A DNA stretch of 24,000 bases from Horticoccus sp. 23ND18S-11 (GCF_047521145.1 NZ_JBKOKE010000001.1); one strand, 5' to 3'. Numbered from the stretch's first letter, positions 3,080 to 23,310 are shown. Notes: generated by a model not told the origin, from the letters alone. Made by a program: numbers and translations.

Positions 3080-4270
3080 ATGCTGCTCCTCCGACGATAT
3101 TTTGCGCTGGCCGGCTGCCTGTGTGCAGCGGTGGCGAACGCCCAACCCGATGCCGCTGCGATCGAGGCCCGGCTCAGCCGGCTTGAAGCCGCGCTGGCCC
3201 GAATTGAAGCGCGCCTCGGCGATCGCGCGAACGTGCCGGAACTGGCACCGGTTGCGCGGGAGCTGAGCGAGGTGACCCGCGACGTGGCGACAAAAGTGCC
3301 GACGGCGATTCCCGCCCAGATGGCCGGGCGCGAGGAGAAACTGGCGGTGGGCGGCCTGCTGCAGGTCAATGCCGGAGCCGGCGGGGTGCCCGATGCCCGC
3401 TACGACGGCGTGCGCAACCGTTTCCTCGTGCGTCGCGCGCGGCTGATGGTGCGCGGAAGTTTTGCGGAGAACGTTGACTTCATGTTTCTGCCGGAATTCG
3501 GCAACGCGGCCATCACGGGCGTCAGCGGTTATCGCGGGCAGTTGACCGACGCGTATGTGACGTGGAGAAAATATCCGCAGGCCACGCTGCAAGCCGGACA
3601 ATTCAAGACGCCGTTCGGCTACGAACAGTTGATCAGTGACGCGAAGGTCGTGACGGTCGAACGCTCGCTGCCCAACGATCGCCTGACCTTTGGCCGGCAA
3701 ATCGGCGCCAGCCTCTCGGGTGTCGCCGCAGGCGAGACCCTCACGTACTCGGCTGGACTCTTCAACGGCAACGGCACCAACAACGGCAACAACGATAACG
3801 ACCAGATGATGTCGGCCGCGCGCGTGGGGGCGGTGGTCTGGACGCACGGCACCGACAGCCTGCGGATCAACGCGAATCTGCTCCACTCGCGCGACACCGG
3901 TGTCTTCACCGGCACGCGCGACGGACGCGGGATCGATGTGCAGTTTGCGCGCGGGCCGCTGGAGGTGGCGGCGGAGTATCTGCGCGTCGACTCCGCCCGC
4001 GCTGGTGGCAGCACGATCGTTGCCGACGGCTGGATGGCGCAGGCGACGTGGTTTTTCGGCTCGAAGATCTGGCAGGCCGTCGCCCGTTTCGAAACGTTCG
4101 ATGCGAATCGTCGGGCCGCAGGCAATGTCAGCGACGGCTGGGTCCTCGGCTTCAATTACTACCTGAAAGGCGACGATCTGAAACTTTCGTTCAACTACCA
4201 CCTGGGCAATCCGGCCGGCCCGCAGGCGCAGGAGGATCGCGTCCTCGGGCGGGTGCAGGTGGTGTTCTGA
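3080..4270 (+). CDS. Outer-membrane porin, phosphate-selective porin O/P (OprO/OprP) family-like
   Basis: The 396-aa ORF has a signal peptide MLLLRRYFALAGCLCAAVANA|QP and an N-terminal coiled segment. The body resembles the porin O/P family (FLVRRARLMVRG..., AGQFKTPFGYEQL...). The pattern alternates in beta-strand fashion and the C-terminal residue is Phe (RVQVVF). Confidence 0.75.
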   Translation: MLLLRRYFALAGCLCAAVANAQPDAAAIEARLSRLEAALARIEARLGDRANVPELAPVARELSEVTRDVATKVPTAIPAQMAGREEKLAVGGLLQVNAGAGGVPDARYDGVRNRFLVRRARLMVRGSFAENVDFMFLPEFGNAAITGVSGYRGQLTDAYVTWRKYPQATLQAGQFKTPFGYEQLISDAKVVTVERSLPNDRLTFGRQIGASLSGVAAGETLTYSAGLFNGNGTNNGNNDNDQMMSAARVGAVVWTHGTDSLRINANLLHSRDTGVFTGTRDGRGIDVQFARGPLEVAAEYLRVDSARAGGSTIVADGWMAQATWFFGSKIWQAVARFETFDANRRAAGNVSDGWVLGFNYYLKGDDLKLSFNYHLGNPAGPQAQEDRVLGRVQVVF

Positions 4271-4284
4271 CCTGCGGCGCGCGG

Positions 4285-4380
4285 CAGTTGAAAGGTGAAG
4301 GGTGAAAGTTGAAAGACCCGAACCTTTAGGGGTTGCGGCCAGCTCCGGTCTTTCACCCTTCAACTTTCACCTTTCAACTG
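4285..4380. repeat. Palindromic intergenic element, family B; 34-nt arms built from heptamers G[G/T]TGAA[A/G]
   Basis: The left arm is 4285-4318 and contains GTTGAAA GGTGAAG GGTGAAA GTTGAAA (4287-4314). The right arm is 4347-4380 and the loop is 28 nt. Arms are complementary at 30 of 34 positions, and the mismatches come from two heptamers being swapped. The element fills the gap between the convergent porin and M15 peptidase genes. Confidence 0.75.
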
Positions 4381-4388
4381 CTTCCCTC

Positions 4389-6206: not shown

Positions 6207-7376
6207 GTGGCCCCGGATCGCATCGTCCGCGGGATGTCCCCGGATTCCGCGAGCGCGTTGCACGAACGCTTGTTCACCTTCGACACGCACTGTGACACGC
6301 CCACCGCCTCGCTGATCAAGCCCGGCTGGGATTTCGGTGCGCGCCACGATTTCGCCGTCGATGGATCGCAGTGCGATCTGCCGCGGCTGCGCGACGGCGG
6401 CGTCGATGCGATGATGTTCGCCGTCTACGTGGGCCAGGCGGCACGAACGCCGGCCGGGCATGCGGTGGCTCACGACGTGGCGCTGCGGTGCTTTGAGCGG
6501 ACGCATGCCGTGCTGCGCGAAAACGCGGCGCAGTGCGGCCTGGCGCTATCGGCGGACGACGGTCCGCGCCTGAAAGCGGAGGGGCGTCGTGCGATCTATC
6601 TGAGCATTGAAAACGCGTACTCCCTCGGGCGCGATCCGGGCCACGTCGCGACCTTTCACCGGCTGGGCGTGCGCATGCTCGGCCTCACGCACATGCTCAA
6701 CAACGAGGTCGCCGATGCGTCGACGGATCCCCGCGGACCGGAGTGGGGCGGTCTGAGCCCGCTCGGACGTGAGATTGTGGCCGAGTGCAACCGGCTCGGG
6801 ATTGTGCTCGATGCCTCGCACGCGAGCGATGCCGTCCTCGAACAACTCCTCGCGCTCTCGAGCGCGCCGGTCGTGTTGTCGCACAGCGGGCCGCGCGGAG
6901 CGTGCGATCATCCGCGGAATGTCGGTGACGACCTGCTCCGGGCACTCGCGACCAAGGGCGGCGTGATCCAAATCAATGCGCTCGCGATCGCGTTGCGCGA
7001 TGATCCCGGCAATGGCCGGACCGCGGGCATTGCCGACGTGCTGATGCAGTATCGCGATGCGGTGCCGACGCCGGAAATGCGCGCCGCGGAGAGTCGCGCG
7101 TACGATGTCGTGTGCGCGCAACACCCCAACCCGACGGTGTCACTCGACGACGTGATTCGTCACATCGAGCACGCTGTGGCCGTGGCTGGCATTGACCACG
7201 TCGGGATCGGTTTCGATCTCGACGGCGGGGGCGGGGGCTTCGCCGGCCTGCGCGACGTCAGCGACTATCCCAACGTCACCCGCGCTCTCCTGGCTCGCGG
7301 CTGGAGCGAGGAGGCGCTGGCCAAACTGTGGGGCGGCAACACGCAGCGCGTGCTGCGCGCGGCTAGCGTGATTTGA
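6207..7376 (+). CDS. Membrane dipeptidase (peptidase family M19)
   Basis: The 389-aa ORF looks M19-like: FDTHCDTP near the N-terminus, LGLTHMLNNEVADAS, VLDASHASD, PVVLSHSG and GIGFDLDG. An alternative start is ATG 6234. Confidence 0.8.
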   Translation: MAPDRIVRGMSPDSASALHERLFTFDTHCDTPTASLIKPGWDFGARHDFAVDGSQCDLPRLRDGGVDAMMFAVYVGQAARTPAGHAVAHDVALRCFERTHAVLRENAAQCGLALSADDGPRLKAEGRRAIYLSIENAYSLGRDPGHVATFHRLGVRMLGLTHMLNNEVADASTDPRGPEWGGLSPLGREIVAECNRLGIVLDASHASDAVLEQLLALSSAPVVLSHSGPRGACDHPRNVGDDLLRALATKGGVIQINALAIALRDDPGNGRTAGIADVLMQYRDAVPTPEMRAAESRAYDVVCAQHPNPTVSLDDVIRHIEHAVAVAGIDHVGIGFDLDGGGGGFAGLRDVSDYPNVTRALLARGWSEEALAKLWGGNTQRVLRAASVI

Positions 7377-9331: not shown

Positions 9332-9382
9332 GCCGGCAAACGGGCGAACAGCGCAGAGTCGGTTTACCCTCCCGGAGGATTT

Positions 9383-9448
9383 TTACAGGAGGCAACGGAG
9401 GTCACTGAGAAAAGGCCCGGACTCGATTGCCTCTGTTGCCTCCTGTAA
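9383..9448. repeat. Palindromic intergenic element, family D; 19-nt arms
   Basis: ttacaggaggcaacggagg (9383-9401) pairs with cctctgttgcctcctgtaa (9430-9448) with one mismatch and a 28-nt loop. The left side contains GGAGGCAAC GGAGGTCAC, a 9-nt period. It lies between the convergent symporter and helicase genes. Confidence 0.75.
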
Positions 9449-9523
9449 GATTTCTGCGGTCTCGGTGTGGCCGCCTACATCAAACGCTGGACACATTTTT
9501 TCTTAAGTTGCCCGTGCGGGCTC

Positions 9524-11527
9524 TCACCACCCGTAGCTGCGCTTCATCTTCAACGGCTGGTAGAGATCACTCGAAAGCTCGGTGAGGAAACGACTCGGCG
9601 TCTGCAGCATCGCGGGCCCGCCCTTGGTGTTCACCTTGGGGAAACACAGGTAGAGCTCGTCGCGCGCGCGGGTGACCGCGACGTAGAACAGCCGGCGCTC
9701 CTCCTCGACGTCACCGGCCTCGATCGCACGGCGCAGGGGAAACATGCCGTCCGCGAGGCTGATCAGGAAAACGGCGGAGTACTCGAGGCCCTTGGCCTGG
9801 TGCACGGTCGTCAGTCGCAGAGCGTCGGCGTCGGGATCGGCCGAACGATCACTGGTCTCGCTGTTGAGCAGCATGACCTGCGCGAGCAGTTCCTGCATGT
9901 CCTCGTAGCGCGACGCGAAACCGATCATCGATTTCAAGTCGTCCAGCCGCGAAATGTAATTCGAGAACGCGCCCTTGAGGTAGTCGCCGTACCAGCCGTC
10001 GATGGCGATCTCGACGGCGTTGTGCGGCTTCATCGTGCGCATCATTTCCTTCACCTGCTGGAGCGAGGCCACGAACTTGGGCCACTCCTCCTTGGCGTCC
10101 TTCGGCACGCGTGACGCCACATCGTCGGTGGCGAGTGCATCGATGAAGTCCTGCTGCATCAGACGCGCGTGTTCGTGCGCGGCGGCGTGGAGCTTTTGCG
10201 CGTTCTTGTCGCCGACCTTCGGCAGCAGCACGGCGATGCGATTCCACGCGGCGGTGTCGCTCGGGTTGTAGACGAAGCGCAGCAGCGCAATGAGATCGCG
10301 GATGTGCGCCTGCTCGAAGAACCGCACGCCGCTCGTGATCTGATACGGAATCTGCAGCCGCGACAGTTCGAGCTGGATGTCGAGGGCCTGGAAATGCGCG
10401 CGGTAAAGAATCGCGATGTCGCTCAGCGAGCAGCCTTCGTCGACGAGCCCGCGGATGCGTTGGACGATGAACTGCGCCTGCTCGCGGCCGTCCATCGCCT
10501 GCACGAAATACGGTTTCTCCGAATTGGCGCGATGCGGCCGCAATTCCTTCTCGAACGAGCGGCCCTTCGGTTGCGCGAGCAGCACGCCGTTGGCCAGCGC
10601 GAGGATCTGCGGCGTCGAGCGGTAATTCGTCTCGATGCGGTGAATCTGCGTGCCCGGGTGGCGGTCGGGAAACGTCAGGATGTTTTCGACGTTCGCGCCC
10701 CGCCACGTGTAGATGCACTGCGCGTCATCGCCGACGGCCATCACGCGGTGGTGCGAGCCGATGAGATCGACGATCTGAGACTGCAGGACGTTGGTGTCCT
10801 GGTACTCGTCGACGAGCACATGGCGGAAGCGGTGCGCGAAATACGCGGCGGTTTCCGGCGAGCGTTTCAACAGATCGAGCCAGTGTTCGAGCAAGTCATC
10901 GTAATCCAGGATGCTGGCCTCGCGTTTCTTCTCCGCGTACTTCTTCGCGAAGAGCGGCACGCGCTCGATGATGGCCTCGTGTTGCGGGAAGAAGCGCTGG
11001 ATCGTCTCGCTCAGCGGCAGCTGCGTGTTGCGCGACATCGAGATGATCGAATGCAACGGACCCGCGCGCGGATGGGTCTTGTCCTTGAAGAACGTCTTGT
11101 CGGCGGTCTCGACGGCGTCACGGAGCACGCCCTCGGACTCCTCGGCGTCGAGAATCGTGAAACTGCGCGGCAGGCCGATGGCGGCGCCGTGCATGCGCAG
11201 GGCGCGATGCCCGATGCTGTGAAACGTGCCGCCCCAGAACCGGCCGGGCTCGACGCCGGTCAGCTCGTGCACCCGGTGGAGCATTTCCTTCGCGGCCTTG
11301 TTGGTGAATGTGAGCAGCAGGATGTCGCCGGGCCGCGCGCCCCGCGAAAGCAGGTAAGCCACCCGGTAGGTGAGGGTGCGGGTCTTGCCCGAGCCGGCGC
11401 CGGCGAGCACGAGCAGTGGCCCCGGTTCCGCGGTCACGGCGGCAAACTGTTCGTCGTTGAGTTCCCGGCGGAAATCAATCGGCGGAAAGCCTTGCGGCGC
11501 GGAAGCTGGGTCCAGGGCGAAATCCAT
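9524..11527 (-). CDS. ATP-dependent DNA helicase, UvrD/PcrA/Rep family (SF1)
   Basis: The ORF carries Walker A AGAGSGKT, motif II DEYQDT, TVHQAKGLE and YVAVTRA. The start was taken at ATG 11527 (MDFALDPASA...); the ORF maximum is 11578. Confidence 0.9.
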   Translation of the reverse strand: MDFALDPASAPQGFPPIDFRRELNDEQFAAVTAEPGPLLVLAGAGSGKTRTLTYRVAYLLSRGARPGDILLLTFTNKAAKEMLHRVHELTGVEPGRFWGGTFHSIGHRALRMHGAAIGLPRSFTILDAEESEGVLRDAVETADKTFFKDKTHPRAGPLHSIISMSRNTQLPLSETIQRFFPQHEAIIERVPLFAKKYAEKKREASILDYDDLLEHWLDLLKRSPETAAYFAHRFRHVLVDEYQDTNVLQSQIVDLIGSHHRVMAVGDDAQCIYTWRGANVENILTFPDRHPGTQIHRIETNYRSTPQILALANGVLLAQPKGRSFEKELRPHRANSEKPYFVQAMDGREQAQFIVQRIRGLVDEGCSLSDIAILYRAHFQALDIQLELSRLQIPYQITSGVRFFEQAHIRDLIALLRFVYNPSDTAAWNRIAVLLPKVGDKNAQKLHAAAHEHARLMQQDFIDALATDDVASRVPKDAKEEWPKFVASLQQVKEMMRTMKPHNAVEIAIDGWYGDYLKGAFSNYISRLDDLKSMIGFASRYEDMQELLAQVMLLNSETSDRSADPDADALRLTTVHQAKGLEYSAVFLISLADGMFPLRRAIEAGDVEEERRLFYVAVTRARDELYLCFPKVNTKGGPAMLQTPSRFLTELSSDLYQPLKMKRSYGW

Positions 11528-11640
11528 GAAGGCGTGGTGCGAAAGGAGGATGGCCGCAAAAAGGCGCTGGCGGCGCAAAGAAAATCAGAGCGAACGCAGG
11601 GGGAATGGGAATCCGATTGCGACGGATCCAAGTCTTGGGC

Positions 11641-11705
11641 CCACGGAACACACGGAATACACGGAAAACGGGCCTGAGCTTCCGTGTATTCCGTGTGTTC
11701 CGTGG
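11641..11705. repeat. Palindromic intergenic element, family E; perfect 26-nt arms with a 9-nt sub-period
   Basis: ccacggaacacacggaatacacggaa (11641-11666) pairs with ttccgtgtattccgtgtgttccgtgg (11680-11705) around the 13-nt loop aacgggcctgagc. CACGGAA recurs three times per arm. It lies in the divergent helicase/DUF4139 promoter region. Confidence 0.85.
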
Positions 11706-11782
11706 GCACCCTGCTGAAAGACGGAGTCGACGGTGGAGTCGGAATTTTTCCAAGGAACTCGCTGCTGGCGCGTCTATCCTAG

Positions 11783-13234: not shown

Positions 13235-13264
13235 GGGAAGGACGTGATGGGGAAGATCGGCCTG

Positions 13265-13318
13265 GGACCGCGACCGCCCCCGGTCGCTGATTAGGGCGAC
13301 CGGGGGCGGTCGCGGTCC
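13265..13318. repeat. REP pair (BIME-like): two inverted 23-nt REPs
   Basis: ggaccgcgaccgcccccggtcgc (13265-13287), the loop tgattagg, and the perfect reverse complement (13296-13318). Each REP itself contains a 7-bp stem GCGACCG/CGGTCGC. Confidence 0.9.
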
Positions 13319-13341
13319 AAGTGCTGCACGGTTCCGATGGT

Positions 13342-13950
13342 CTACACCGGTCCTTGGTACGCTCTGCTCCACGGCCAATCTTCCGCCCGGGCCACGAGTC
13401 CCGCAGTCACCGGATTGCGATGGATGTAATCCACGGCGGCGCGGTAGTGCCGTTGGTTGCGGATGTACCGATCGAAGTAGTCCAGCTGCCAAATCCGCCC
13501 TCTCCGGATCTGTGGCCCCCCTGGACCGCGACCGCCCCCGGTCGCCTCCGCATCCGTCGCTTCCAAAATCCTCCGCGCACTCACGCTCTTCCAAGCCGAA
13601 ACCGTCTTCCCAATCGTCACCTCCGCCAGCGGCTCGACGATCACATGCACGTGATTCGGCATGATCACCCACGCGTAAAGCCGGTAGTCGTGGTCGTTCC
13701 GATGATGGAGGGCGTCACGCACCGCTGCCGCACAAGACGGCTGCCGCAACAGACACGTACCGTGGTGCGCGTCGAGGTAATGCTCGACAGCGGCGCGACG
13801 CTGGGCGTCATCGAGCGCCTGTTCTTCAAGTCGTCGGCAGACGTGAACAGGAAGCGAATCCGCCAGGTGATAGGTGATGGCCTGCATGGCCCGGCCGTCG
13901 TCGAAGTGCGGGAGGTAGCCGCGGGCATGCCAGCCGGGAGAATCGGGCAT
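13342..13950 (-). CDS. REP-associated tyrosine transposase (RayT; IS200/IS605 TnpA-like Y1 HUH enzyme)
   Basis: The 203-aa product runs from ATG 13950 as MPDSPGWHARGYLPHFDDG.... It has the HUH motif in MPNHVHVIV and the catalytic-Tyr region AAVDYIHRNPVTAGLV. The ORF-track extension to 14133 runs through REPs and the tandem array and was discarded. Confidence 0.8.
   Translation of the reverse strand: MPDSPGWHARGYLPHFDDGRAMQAITYHLADSLPVHVCRRLEEQALDDAQRRAAVEHYLDAHHGTCLLRQPSCAAAVRDALHHRNDHDYRLYAWVIMPNHVHVIVEPLAEVTIGKTVSAWKSVSARRILEATDAEATGGGRGPGGPQIRRGRIWQLDYFDRYIRNQRHYRAAVDYIHRNPVTAGLVARAEDWPWSRAYQGPV
13523..13545. repeat. Perfect REP copy inside the RayT coding sequence
   Basis: The 23-nt ggaccgcgaccgcccccggtcgc is identical to the flanking REPs. 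On the minus strand it reads in frame as ATGGGRGP, within ...RRILEATDAEATGGGRGPGGPQIRRGRIWQLDYFDRY.... Confidence 0.9.
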
Positions 13951-13961
13951 GATTGATTCTG

Positions 13962-14041
13962 GGACCGCGACCGCCCCCGGTCGCCAGCCGTACGGATGCC
14001 CGAAACACAGTACAAGCAGCGACCGAGGGCGGTCGCGGTCC
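13962..14041. repeat. REP pair upstream of RayT; inverted copies with a 34-nt spacer
   Basis: A perfect REP lies at 13962-13984, 12 nt from the RayT start codon. An inverted copy gcgaccgagggcggtcgcggtcc lies at 14019-14041 with one mismatch. Confidence 0.85.
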
Positions 14042-14106
14042 CAGTCCGGTCCCAGTCCGGTCCCAGTCCGGTCCCAGTCCGGTCCCAGTCCGGTCCCAGT
14101 CCGGTT
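14037..14106. repeat. 11-bp tandem repeat GGTCCCAGTCC, about 6.4 copies
   Basis: Six perfect units run 14037-14102, followed by ggtt. The first unit overlaps the GGTCC end of the adjacent REP. Confidence 0.95.
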
Positions 14107-15928: not shown

Positions 15929-16027
15929 GGTTGAGAGGTGAGAGTTGAGGGTTGAGAGCCAGAAACTTCAAGGGCGAGTCGGACTGTGGTCCGAGATCTC
16001 TCAACCCTCAACTCTCAGCTCTCAACC
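15929..16027. repeat. Palindromic element, family G; 30-nt arms built from heptamers G[G/T]TGAG[A/G]
   Basis: The left arm is 15929-15958 and contains GTTGAGA GGTGAGA GTTGAGG GTTGAGA (15930-15957). The right arm is 15998-16027, with one mismatch and a 39-nt loop that holds the small hairpin cggac-tgtg-gtccg. The element occupies almost all of the 119-nt pyrH-frr spacer. Confidence 0.85.
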
Positions 16028-20966: not shown

Positions 20967-21449
20967 ATGAATCTGAACCACTCGAAAAAGACCCCGCGCG
21001 TTTCGTTCCATCGCGGCCCAGCTCGCCGAAGCCGCGGCGAAGGCGGCTTCACCCTCGTCGAGCTCCTTCTCGTGCTCGTGATTCTCGGCATTCTCGCCGC
21101 GATCGTGGTGCCGAAGTTCGGCGGCCGCACCGAGCAGGCGCGTATCACCGCCGCGGTGACGCAGATCTCGACCTTCGGCACGGCGCTCAACGCGTTTGAA
21201 GTCGACACCGGCAGCTATCCGCGCGGCCAGGACGGTCTCCGGCAGCTGCTTGTTGCCCCCGCGGACATCACCGGCTGGCGCGGGCCGTACCTGATGAGCG
21301 ACATTCCGCTCGATCCCTGGGGCCGCGCCTACCTGTACGAGTTTCCCGGCCGCGTGAATCCCAGCGGCTACGACATCGTTTCGATGGGACCGGACGGTCA
21401 GCCCGGCACGCCCGACGACGTGGTGAATGCCAGCATCACCGGAAAGTAA
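20967..21449 (+). CDS. gspG: Major pseudopilin GspG
   Basis: The class III signal ends in G|FTLVELLLVLVILGILAAIVVP. The GspG core reads ...LDPWGRAYLYEFPGRVNPSGYDIVSMGPDGQPGTPDDVVN. The leader is 27 aa, and no in-frame ATG, GTG or TTG lies between ATG 20967 and the cleavage site. Confidence 0.9.
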   Translation: MNLNHSKKTPRVSFHRGPARRSRGEGGFTLVELLLVLVILGILAAIVVPKFGGRTEQARITAAVTQISTFGTALNAFEVDTGSYPRGQDGLRQLLVAPADITGWRGPYLMSDIPLDPWGRAYLYEFPGRVNPSGYDIVSMGPDGQPGTPDDVVNASITGK

Positions 21450-22026
21450 ACGCTCGCGCCGCTGGTGTCGCGCCTTCCTCCGCCGCAATCGCAGCGGAGG
21501 CGGGTTCACCCTGATCGAATTGATCTTCGTGCTCGCGCTGCTGGCGATCGGCGCGCTGTTCGTGGCGTCGCGCATGGGCGCCTTCATCCGCGGACGCGCC
21601 CTGAACTTCGAGGCGCGGCGGCTGTTGTCGCTGTCGCATTATGCCCAGAGTCGCGCGGTCGCCGAGGGCGTGCCGATCATACTTTGGGTCAACGCCAAGG
21701 ACTCCACCTACGGCATTGCGATCCAGTCCACCTTCGGCGTCACCGGCGACGACGAGGTCGACATGCACGCGGTCAGTTATACCGCCGAGTCCAGCGTGAC
21801 GTTGGAAGCGCCCACGGGGCCGACGGCCGCCGTTTCCGAGCAGGAAGACGAACGCCTCGGGCTGACTGAAGGCCTCGCCGCCATCCGCTTTAATCCCGAC
21901 GGCTTCTTCGACGAATCGAGCGTGATCAAGATCACGCTCCGTCAGGGCACCGAGGCCGGCCTTGAGTTGGTCCAGACGGCCAACCGCCTCGCCTACGAAA
22001 TTCGCCCCGCGTCCAATGCCGACTGA
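21427..22026 (+). CDS. gspH: Minor pseudopilin, GspH/FimT-like
   Basis: The ORF has GGG|FTLIELIFVLALLAIGALFV followed by RGRALNFEARRLLSLSHYAQSRAV, which is GspH-like. It occupies the position after gspG and overlaps gspG by 23 nt. The leader is 26 aa. Confidence 0.7.
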   Translation: MPASPESKRSRRWCRAFLRRNRSGGGFTLIELIFVLALLAIGALFVASRMGAFIRGRALNFEARRLLSLSHYAQSRAVAEGVPIILWVNAKDSTYGIAIQSTFGVTGDDEVDMHAVSYTAESSVTLEAPTGPTAAVSEQEDERLGLTEGLAAIRFNPDGFFDESSVIKITLRQGTEAGLELVQTANRLAYEIRPASNAD

Positions 22027-22495
22027 CGCCCAGTTCCGTCCGCATCTCGGTTCGACCAAGAACGGACCCGCCCGCCGTAGCCTTGGCGAAGGCGGCTTCA
22101 CCCTCGCCGAAGTCCTCGCCGCGCTTTTGTTCATGGCGATCCTCGTGCCAGTCACGATGCAGGGCGTCACGGTGGCGAGCCGCGCGGGCATGCTGGGCCA
22201 GCGCAAGGCCGCGGCGATGCGCATCGCCGAGCGCGTGCTCGAGGAGCAGCTCGTATCCGGACAGGTCGCGACGGCCACGCCCTACGGTACGGTCGTTGAC
22301 GGCGACATGAGTTATCCGTGGAGCATGAGGTCCGACCCGTGGCCGGAAGACACGGCGATCGCCCTGAACGTGCTGACCGTGCGCGTGGAGTTCACCGTGC
22401 AGGGGGCGACGTTCGACGTGGCTGTATCCACCTTGTACGATCCGGCGATCACCGTCACGACGTCCACCAGCTCACCGGCAGTCAGCGTCGAGTGA
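22016..22495 (+). CDS. gspI: Minor pseudopilin, GspI-like by N-terminus, size and position
   Basis: The start is ATG 22016, overlapping the gspH stop by 11 nt. The 27-aa leader ends in GEGG|FTLAEVLAALLFMAILV. The mature part is about 133 aa. Confidence 0.6.
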   Translation: MPTDAQFRPHLGSTKNGPARRSLGEGGFTLAEVLAALLFMAILVPVTMQGVTVASRAGMLGQRKAAAMRIAERVLEEQLVSGQVATATPYGTVVDGDMSYPWSMRSDPWPEDTAIALNVLTVRVEFTVQGATFDVAVSTLYDPAITVTTSTSSPAVSVE

Positions 22496-23310
22496 TGATC
22501 TCCCGGCCTCCAGTTTCCCGTCTTAAGTGCGGCCGCAATCGCGGCCCAAGCGGACCCGTCCGCCGTAGGCTTGGCGAAGGTGCACCTGTCCGCCGTAGGC
22601 TCGGCGAAGGCGGATTCACCCTCCTCGAACTCCTCCTCGCCACCGCCATCGGCGCGGTCGTGCTGCTGGTGGTCAACGCCACGTTTTTCTCCGCGCTGCG
22701 CCTGCACAACGCCACGCATGATCGGATCGACGGCGATCTCGTGATTCAGCGCACGCTGGGCATCGTGCGCCGCGATCTCGCGGGAATCATGATCCCGCCC
22801 AACCCGCAGGCGACGACGCCCAAGCTGTCCGGGCAGCTGGTCACCGACGGTGCGACGACCAACGCGATGGACGCCACCGCCGAACGCATCACGCCGGACA
22901 TCTACACGAACTCCGGCCGGCTTGATGGCTGGTCGACCTTCTCCGATGTGCAGATGGTGTCGTATTATCTCGCGCCGGCCACCGATGGATCGCCGACGAA
23001 GAATCTCGTGCGCGTCGTGACCCGCAACCTGCTCCCCGTGATCGAGGCGACCACCGAGGATCAGACGCTGCTGACCGGCGTCACGGCTGCCGCGATGAGT
23101 TATTTCGATGGCGAAAACTGGCTCGATATCTGGGACTCGACGGCGAGCAGCAGTCTGCCGACCGCCATCAAGTTCAGCGTCGTGGTCGCGCCGCGCGATC
23201 GCACCGTGTCCAGCGCGGAGCCCGCGCCGATTGAACTGATCGTGCCGGTGATCGTGAAGACGATTGCCACGTTGCAGCAGGAAGTCGCCGCGGAGGCGGC
23301 GTCGCTATGA
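22495..23310 (+). CDS. gspJ: Minor pseudopilin, GspJ-like
   Basis: The start ATG 22495 overlaps the gspI stop (TGATG). The 40-aa leader ends in GEGG|FTLLELLLATAIGAVVLLVV. The mature part is about 231 aa and sits in the expected position before gspK. Confidence 0.6.
   Translation: MISRPPVSRLKCGRNRGPSGPVRRRLGEGAPVRRRLGEGGFTLLELLLATAIGAVVLLVVNATFFSALRLHNATHDRIDGDLVIQRTLGIVRRDLAGIMIPPNPQATTPKLSGQLVTDGATTNAMDATAERITPDIYTNSGRLDGWSTFSDVQMVSYYLAPATDGSPTKNLVRVVTRNLLPVIEATTEDQTLLTGVTAAAMSYFDGENWLDIWDSTASSSLPTAIKFSVVVAPRDRTVSSAEPAPIELIVPVIVKTIATLQQEVAAEAASL
22558..22617 (+). repeat. 30-bp tandem duplication within the gspJ leader-coding region
   Basis: gtccgccgtaggcttggcgaaggtgcacct (22558-22587) is followed by gtccgccgtaggctcggcgaaggcggattc (22588-22617). 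The first 23 nt match at 22 of 23 positions. The duplication encodes VRRRLGEGAP then VRRRLGEGGF. Confidence 0.9.

Follow-up and report, generated by a model that had tools for sequence, protein, structure and literature searches.

As judged by sequence, cognate REP hairpins are shown here to lie in the same loop of RayT proteins across many phyla. In the window (the whole stretch of DNA that was analyzed, 24,000 nt from Horticoccus sp. 23ND18S-11; GCF_047521145.1, NZ_JBKOKE010000001.1), a 23-nt REP element is located inside the RayT gene, and comparison with orthologous genes shows that it is what is left, namely the right arm, of an old inverted REP pair (REPIN) that lies in frame and has been inherited vertically with the gene. 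The arm is an old and conserved one, and very probably it is subject to maintenance at the nucleotide level.

The RayT gene and its REP copies

The ORF at 13342 through 13950 (− strand), which starts MPDSPGWH, encodes an intact protein of 202 residues and, by its matches and its surroundings, is a RayT with the layout of a REPtron, having REP pairs on both sides and vertical inheritance. It matches Pfam Y1_Tnp (PF01797; 32.5 bits, cut-off 23) and NCBIfam NF047646, “REP-associated tyrosine transposase” (97.9 bits, cut-off 80); the IS200 model NF033573 fails on it (24 bits, cut-off 55). Its sole sequence match in the Protein Data Bank (PDB) is 4er8, E. coli TnpA_REP (E = 3.5e-10, C-terminal part only), where VDYIY (Y115) aligns with VDYIH of RayT. 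The AlphaFold model of RayT (pLDDT 83.6) has 4er8_A as its best PDB fold match (E = 1.7e-08; TM 0.52/0.62; 21% identity), and the next fold matches are IS200/IS608/ISDra2 transposases. The HUH motif (H100/H102; 13645 through 13653, − strand) and the catalytic tyrosine (Y175; 13426 through 13428, − strand) are invariant in a 43-sequence alignment; the ORF is unbroken, and the gene looks functional. An earlier note on this DNA, made from the sequence alone, had named a disrupted catalytic element as the sign of a pseudogene; with H100, H102, and Y175 intact, the pseudogene reading is ruled out. There is one RayT gene in the window. The closest proteins in a collection of 5.8 billion are 55 to 62% identical, and the closest relatives belong to Opitutaceae/Verrucomicrobiota.

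The intragenic REP, GGACCGCGACCGCCCCCGGTCGC (13523 through 13545, + strand, antisense to the gene), has a 5' tail (GGACC) followed by the hairpin GCGACCG-CCCC-CGGTCGC, with a 7-bp stem and a 4-nt loop. It matches three extragenic copies at 23 of 23 positions (13265 through 13287, +; 13296 through 13318, −; 13962 through 13984, +), and a fifth copy (14019 through 14041, −) is identical at 22 of 23. Five matches were thus observed in the window against 0.00 expected from 100 dinucleotide-preserving shuffles, and a chance origin of the internal REP was rejected because no copies are expected in shuffles. No copy is more than about 700 bp from RayT, and the rest of the window has none.

Two REPINs bracket the gene. 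The downstream one (13262 through 13287, +, and 13296 through 13321, −; 8-nt spacer) lies between the convergent stops of a DUF4139 gene (13234) and RayT (13342). The upstream one (13959 through 13984, +, and 14019 through 14044, −, with one mismatch; 34-nt spacer) begins 9 nt 5' of the RayT start codon, between proB and RayT, and a tandem array of 6.4 perfect copies of an 11-nt unit, CGGTCCCAGTC (14036 through 14105), extends from the tail (GGTCCCAG) of this upstream REP. The possibility that the external repeats are fragments of RayT pseudogenes was considered and rejected; they are hairpins of 23 to 26 nt without gene-like flanks. A promoter and terminator scan around the RayT locus returned nothing informative.

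The internal copy is a REP by sequence and not by location, as it lies inside an intact ORF and the other four are extragenic; it is a singlet rather than an inverted doublet. Immediately 5' of its core stand the bases CCT, where CTG is found in three of the four external copies; its version of the conserved CTGGGA tail thus deviates by one base. The external copy at 13259 through 13290 carries the tail CTGGGACC. The description, given in the earlier note, of a perfect REP in frame inside RayT therefore stands for the frame and for the core, at 23 of 23 positions, and falls short at the 5' flank. The altered tail could weaken recognition by RayT, if the tail works like the GTAG of E. coli REPs.

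An in-frame insert shared by orthologues

On the basis of alignments, the AlphaFold model, and loop lengths, the loop segment was placed at residues 127 through 153, with coding DNA at 13492 through 13572 (− strand). It lies between the long helix bearing W-K-S-x-S-A-R and the W-Q-x-D-Y strand, a segment whose length varies strongly among homologues. In the window RayT the loop has 31 residues, compared with 16 in the family base state (e.g., FTAKEANKILGRSGDF), which is the base state in one large clade; an excess of about 15 residues had been predicted, and the homologue alignments agree with the earlier proposal that REP DNA was inserted here with the frame preserved. Read in frame from its reverse complement, the REP encodes A136-T-G-G-G-R-G-P143 within RRILEATDAEATGGGRGPGGPQIRRGRIWQLDYFDRY, exactly where the peptide ATGGGRGP had been noted. 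The insert brings in no stop codon and leaves the core motifs of the host protein intact.

AlphaFold gives a helix (residues 113 through 137), a low-confidence loop (138 through 153), and a strand (154 through 162), with a mean pLDDT of 56 over residues 141 through 150; the REP-encoded residues 136 through 143 span the end of the helix and the start of the loop. The insert is predicted from this model to lie in a surface loop, in keeping with the tolerated placement suggested before, and the flexibility of the loop would allow the extra Gly/Arg/Pro-rich segment to be tolerated. By position, the insert segment corresponds to residues 64 through 91 of E. coli TnpA_REP, between the two aligned 4er8 blocks. 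According to PMC3479197, R78 and K82 of that enzyme contact the hairpin, and R97 lies in the next strand. The insert may thus sit beside the DNA-binding face, a placement derived from positional correspondence with TnpA_REP and not from structural superposition.

The DNA of fourteen relatives, including L008, L081, and L082, was compared with that of the window RayT. Translation of the + strand REP gives GTATAPGR, and that of its complement gives ATGGGRGP; both peptides occur in this order in homologues (e.g., P0008, PGSATAPDRKGSGEATGGGRAPR). A complete in-frame REPIN is found in the loop of six genes (L161, L163, L165, L166, L168, and L171). In the orthologues the inserted DNA follows CC, begins with GGGAGCGCG, continues through hairpin, spacer, and second hairpin, and ends with CGCGCTCCC before AGG. 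To the nucleotide, the insert has the same boundaries in six divergent genes, and its position and frame are the same in the window and in orthologues whose proteins share only 55 to 69% identity with the window RayT. The picture of an insertion particular to this gene, implied in the earlier note, is consequently not supported: orthologues share both its frame and its exact position, and most of them have the full REP pair. The left arm is decaying in L167, and is also counted as decayed in L171; L170 and the window have the right arm only, the left arm of the orthologues being absent from the window loop.

The gene order proB (AA_kinase+PUA), RayT, DUF4139 is common to the window, L165, L166, L167, and L168; these genes are therefore orthologues, and the insert is older than their split. 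Gene-wide identity at third codon positions is 0.35 to 0.57 (0.71 in one close pair), which is saturated at this GC content. The earlier note had also named, as evidence that would refute it, homologues with a similar peptide in genomes lacking the REP; on the contrary, the homologues with such peptides, P0004 and P0008 (ATGGGRGP/ATGGGRAP), have the REP around the gene.

The copy in the window looks partly eroded, with its left arm gone, its tail one base off, and an unexceptional fold. As RNA, the 81-nt context of the window hairpin folds no better than shuffles (z −1.2). The REPINs inside the ORFs of the orthologues reach −58 to −75 kcal/mol, with z of −7 to −10. Given the unexceptional context in the window, an argument from strong structure is limited to the orthologues with a full REPIN.

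Conservation and recurrence of the loop hairpin

Between genes, the 24-nt right arm is identical at 17 to 24 of its 24 positions. Six to eight of the eight third codon positions within it are identical, as against saturation in the rest of the gene (gene-wide identity 0.40 to 0.57 in this comparison). The stem occurs in several variants (GCGACCG, GCGGACG, GCGGCCG, and GCGGGCG), and the partner bases change along with it: pairing is kept in 98.4% of cells, two pairs show double changes, none of 500 shuffles is equal, and slid controls are all poor. Meanwhile the loop peptide varies non-conservatively (ATGGGRGP, ATGDGRGP, ADEGVRAP, AAGDGRAP, and AGEPPALP) and the hairpin stays. Within clusters at 90% identity, the REP-encoded core is invariant or nearly so, and the adjoining loop residues vary; no presence/absence polymorphism of the insert is seen within these clusters, the length differences being at the N and C termini.

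The internal copy also follows the REPs of its own genome. Over 24 to 62 nt it equals the flanking REPs in the window, L161, L165, L166, L167, L168, L169, and L171, and the stems differ among these eight genomes (GCGACCG, GCGGACG, GCGGCCG, and GCGGGCC). L163 and L164 depart from this rule, with an internal REPIN of the GCGACCG type and flanking REPINs of the GCGGGCC type; the internal arm of L163 is identical at 23 of 24 positions to that of its sister gene L161. Co-variation thus has exceptions, and those flanks cannot derive from the internal copy. The insert has decayed in L081, short loops with remnants resembling REP tails are found in L082 and L172, and L008 has a base-state loop; because RayT and its flanking REPs are intact in all four, the internal copy is dispensable. 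Taken as a whole, the pattern points to a constraint on DNA or RNA, or to homogenization with the REP family, and not to selection on the peptide. Conservation at the DNA level argues for some constraint on the nucleic acid, though gene conversion by nearby REPs could also yield it.

The association of loop and hairpin extends well beyond the orthologues. A survey of GTDB genomes and metagenomes yielded 167 distinct RayT loci among the matches listed, mostly distant relatives with at most 48 to 55% identity. Identical stretches of 15 nt or more shared by gene and extragenic DNA fall on residues 131 through 150 in 31 to 32 of the 167 loci listed, and on any other 10-residue bin in only 1 to 3. 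Of the 149 loci that could be classified by loop length, 61 have base-length, 44 intermediate, and 44 long loops, and the loop DNA has an extragenic match in 1, 2, and 22 of these, respectively; control segments of the gene give a match in 1 to 3 loci. Many of the contigs are too short to show external copies. A perfect hairpin followed by TCCC is present in 37 of 147 loops (11.5 kb), compared with 7 genes for the remaining core gene (71.6 kb).

At least eight hairpin families are represented, in at least six RayT clades, and they are read in different frames. The hosts include Acidobacteriota, Zixibacteria, Nitrospirales, Hydrogenedentales, and Desulfobacteraceae, as well as Coprothermobacterota, Methylococcales, Lamprocystis purpurea DSM 4197, and Verrucomicrobiota. 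Common to all these loop REPs is a 5'-CTGGGA(N)C tail adjoining a variable hairpin. Where the loop holds a single copy, the tail lies 3' of the hairpin on the sense strand in 21 cases versus 4, counts that are not phylogenetically independent.

For annotation, it follows that the unusual segments rich in Gly, Arg, and Pro that RayT proteins contain are translated REPs (e.g., GSATAPGR...ATGGGRAP, SRTGVRRSQ, CRAGARRSQ, GNANLLIG/ANQEIG, and NAELGLGVP), so that the REP type of a genome can be read from the protein alone.

Possible roles of the hairpin and comparison with known systems

The reading we prefer, to which we give an even chance, is that the internal REP is a cis-acting element that dampens the production of RayT. 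The constraint would then act on the DNA or RNA of the hairpin and not on the peptide, and the internal REP would be a live copy of the recognition hairpin of the enzyme itself, with cis-dampening as its most likely role. Two routes can be envisaged. RayT might bind the hairpin in the DNA or the transcript that encodes it, or the fold might be effective in itself, as with the REPINs inside the ORFs of the orthologues. An RNA fold of the size of these REPINs is long enough for an RNase III-type target. Unlike the REPIN-bearing orthologues, the window retains only a 7-bp hairpin. That the nucleotide-level maintenance of the arm reflects a selected function in cis is, in our judgment, at best an even call: dispensability, the single 7-bp hairpin in the window, the off-by-one tail, and the multi-unit arrays in some loops all count against it. 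More tentative still is the general proposition that RayT genes of many phyla keep the substrate hairpin as a selected self-recognition element, whether as a feedback site by which the enzyme or the hairpin would throttle RayT synthesis, or as a heritable master copy that would keep enzyme and REP family matched over long evolutionary times; we regard it as possible and no better than doubtful.

The maintenance of the arm may instead have a neutral cause, the main alternative, which we do not consider probable but which deserves serious weight. An old REPIN would persist as a passenger in the only permissive loop; gene conversion or template switching with the flanking copies, or RayT-mediated replacement, would repeatedly restore its likeness to a REP. 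The RayT gene is the DNA nearest the enzyme and is ringed by REPs, with flanking donors 100 to 700 bp away. Neutrality is plausible because in-frame intragenic REPs are common in Opitutus terrae (PMC3733652) and because several losses of the internal copy are seen: it is gone or decayed in L008, L081, L082, and L172, with RayT and the flanking REPs kept. The left arm likewise is decayed in L167 and L171 and gone from the window. The loops of L011 and L099 hold arrays of at least three REP units, which look like ordinary REP clustering and not like a tuned operator. Furthermore, a 42-nt stretch of the window (the internal REP and 18 nt of flank) is 83% complementary to 13295 through 13336, and could be a conversion tract. 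Against such a passenger, the nucleotide-identical boundaries in six divergent genes speak against repeated re-insertion, L163 retains the old REP type though both of its flanking REPINs differ, and the 90%-identity clusters are free of presence/absence polymorphism. The REPIN papers covered here describe duplication and decay, and do not present gene conversion among REPs as a main process. Even if the neutral explanation is true, its own gene is still by far the commonest intragenic target of RayT.

A role as master copy is improbable. The internal REP or REPIN, together with the copies hugging the gene, would be a heritable source from which RayT seeds extragenic copies preferentially in cis; in sequence, the REP family of a genome would then follow the internal copy. 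This would fit the co-variation of internal and external copies in eight genomes with four stems, the position of all five copies of the window within about 700 bp of RayT, and the strict inheritance of the insert with the gene. It does not fit the flanking REPINs of L163, which are unlike the internal one, and RayTs without an internal copy are still flanked by REPs; L008 and L172 already hint that REP families may be abundant in genomes whose RayT has a base-state loop.

Equally unlikely is selection for the peptide, whereby the REP-encoded Gly/Arg/Pro-rich segment extends the DNA-binding face of RayT. The insert does follow a helix that matches by position residues 64 through 91 of TnpA_REP, where the R78 and K82 contacts lie (PMC3479197), many inserts are Arg-rich (GRAPRKR and RRSQ), and the peptide NAELGLGVP is kept in one clade. 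However, amino acids switch freely (T/D/A and G/E/D/V) while base pairs are preserved by double changes, and it is the third codon positions that are most conserved, the opposite of what peptide selection would give; clades differ in the frame and in the orientation in which the hairpin is read, and the model has low confidence in the insert segment.

Finally, a recent private insertion, with which perfect identity to the neighboring copies would agree, is excluded by the same-site inserts in orthologues that are saturated at synonymous sites when compared with the window. More generally, a recent lineage-specific event, chance, or an assembly artifact peculiar to this genome is highly improbable, because independent assemblies and metagenomes have inserts at the same position, no copy is expected by chance, and the ORF is intact.

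Two questions stand open in the field: by what means REP/REPIN families and a single-copy RayT remain matched over millions of years, and what holds RayT activity extremely low. A cognate hairpin at a fixed loop of the gene of the enzyme provides a concrete handle on both, and one that can be tested by mutation. That RayT genes contain their cognate REP, always in one loop, with conservation between orthologues and recurrence in many phyla, appears to be new: REPs inside RayT genes were not found described in the full-text REP/RAYT literature that was covered (PMC5581495, PMC6006769, PMC8266576, PMC3733652, PMC3333891, PMC3116915, bioRxiv 10.1101/2021.07.10.451892, PMC3479197, and PMC3390384; Nunvar et al. 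2010 and subscription-only papers were outside this scope).

The locus has the hallmarks of the REPtron or REPIN-RAYT systems, represented by E. coli TnpA_REP (YafM; PDB: 4er8) and the RAYTs of Pseudomonas: the same single HUH/Y1 gene flanked by inverted cognate REP pairs and vertical inheritance at a fixed chromosomal site. The tail is CTGGGA(N)C here and GTAG in E. coli REPs, both conserved and both 5' of the hairpin, and the window RayT is only distantly related to the E. coli enzyme. Unlike those systems, the locus has one more cognate REP, placed in frame within the coding sequence at a fixed loop.

With respect to regulation, a stem-loop in the tnpA mRNA of IS200 limits translation (as stated in the discussion of PMC3733652), and the C-terminal tail of E. 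coli TnpA_REP is auto-inhibitory and occupies the active site (PMC3479197); both are ways of keeping a Y1 transposase at very low activity. In contrast to the hairpin of IS200, the one described here lies about 400 nt inside the ORF and not at the ribosome-binding site, and its regulatory effect is putative.

The nearest relatives of the insert itself are the in-frame intragenic REPs described in Opitutus terrae (GTAG-17/18/19), Thauera, and Stenotrophomonas (Di Nocera et al. 2013, PMC3733652), and the palindromic elements of Rickettsia. All are short palindromic repeats or dimers in frame, adding 7 to 30 residues. Opitutaceae are the richest known case of intragenic REPs; the catalogue of that paper lists unrelated target genes with different sites, and its authors argue against a functional constraint. 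In the supplement to the paper, no host gene is annotated as a transposase or RAYT; a few “hypothetical” ORFs of R. baltica are listed there (RB08499 and RB08740), of about 180 residues and with REPs at residues 121 through 171, and these might be unrecognized RayTs. The element described here differs from those intragenic REPs in that the host gene is that of the enzyme acting on the repeat, in that its site is fixed across orthologues and recurs across phyla, and in that the repeat itself is conserved beyond coding needs.

Sequence adjoining the REPs of the window RayT gene

The similarity between the REP inside the RayT (REP-associated tyrosine transposase) gene and the downstream REP copy may extend beyond the REP itself. 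Over 42 nt, the internal REP with an 18-nt flank (13505-13546) and the downstream REP with its own flank (13295-13336) are complementary at 83% of positions; in the non-REP part, about 11 of 18 positions match, counted by hand. This hints weakly that a stretch longer than the REP was copied or converted. After the internal REP, the gene carries five extra codons (GGPQI), and such an event might explain them.

The intergenic region between proB and RayT contains a tandem array of 6.4 perfect copies of an 11-nt unit, CGGTCCCAGTC (14036-14105), which begins within the upstream REP (14019-14044), in its tail (GGTCCCAG). The array resembles a REP tail multiplied by slippage or by repeated cleavage and ligation.

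Other palindromes in the window

Four consecutive genes (20967-23310) encode a prepilin-type N terminus (GGFTL[VI]ELL), and each opens with a conserved 57-nt leader; in the last of them, a 30-nt unit of the leader is duplicated in tandem (22554-22610). The leader holds a small palindrome, CCGCC-GTAGSCTYGGCGAA-GGCGG, that codes for RRSLGEGG and may represent a second family of in-frame palindromic repeats. Intergenic palindromes that are long and of low complexity, with arms of 23 to 38 nt (for example, GCCCACGGAACACACGGAATACACGGAA/TTCCGTGTATTCCGTGTGTTCCGTGGGC), lie at 1-80, 4284-4381, 9372-9459, 11639-11707, and 15929-16027; they are unrelated to the REP in sequence and may be terminators.

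RayT loops of relatives and earlier examples

Two orthologs with short loops, L082 (loop within 6313-6426) and L172 (loop within gene 10001-10609), carry tail-like remnants, CACCTGGGGCATTTGCCCGG and TTCTCCTGAGG, at the insert site. The remnants are similar to the REPIN tails CCTGGGA...TCCCAGG, where a REPIN is an inverted REP pair, and suggest that these loops once held a REPIN whose hairpins were deleted.

At a further RayT locus, L163, the stem is GCGGGCC-GCTG-GGCCCGC in the REPINs that flank the gene (9960-10027 and 10641-10705) but GCGACCG-CCCC-CGGTCGC in the one within the ORF (10429-10487). Two REP types are therefore present at one REPtron (a RayT gene with its flanking cognate REPs), and within the 20 kb examined the older type (GCGACCG) persists only inside the RayT gene.

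Earlier examples may exist in the literature. Among the hosts of intragenic REPs catalogued in PMC3733652 (Additional file 3) are "hypothetical" ORFs of Rhodopirellula baltica (RB08499, RB08740, and RB12800; 156 to 203 aa), with the REPs at about residues 121 through 171. Their size and the position of the insert fit RayT and its loop, and they may be unrecognized cases of REPs inside RayT genes.

The 90%-identity cluster of the RayT homolog P0073, built around a RayT of 255 aa, also includes numerous proteins of 105 aa that are annotated as the heme-degrading monooxygenase HmoA, as well as RayT-HmoA fusions of 358 aa; in some assemblies the C-terminal extension of RayT apparently runs into the neighboring gene.

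Loop arrays and a shared REP tail

Some RayT loops hold in-frame arrays of REP units: the 71-aa loop of L099 contains at least four (3881-4147; ANLLIG / GNANLLIG / ANQEIG), and that of L011 contains three in tandem (1187-1306; SRTGVRxSQ). Across the loops and flanks of the RayT loci of relatives (L001-L172), which come from very different phyla, the REPs linked with this RayT family have the tail 5'-CTGGGA(N)C in common, and the hairpins beside it are otherwise unrelated, with stems that include GCCAATC, CCGCAC, GCCGAGC, CGCGAGG, and GCGACCG. This tail is probably the counterpart of GTAG, the recognition motif of Escherichia coli REPs.
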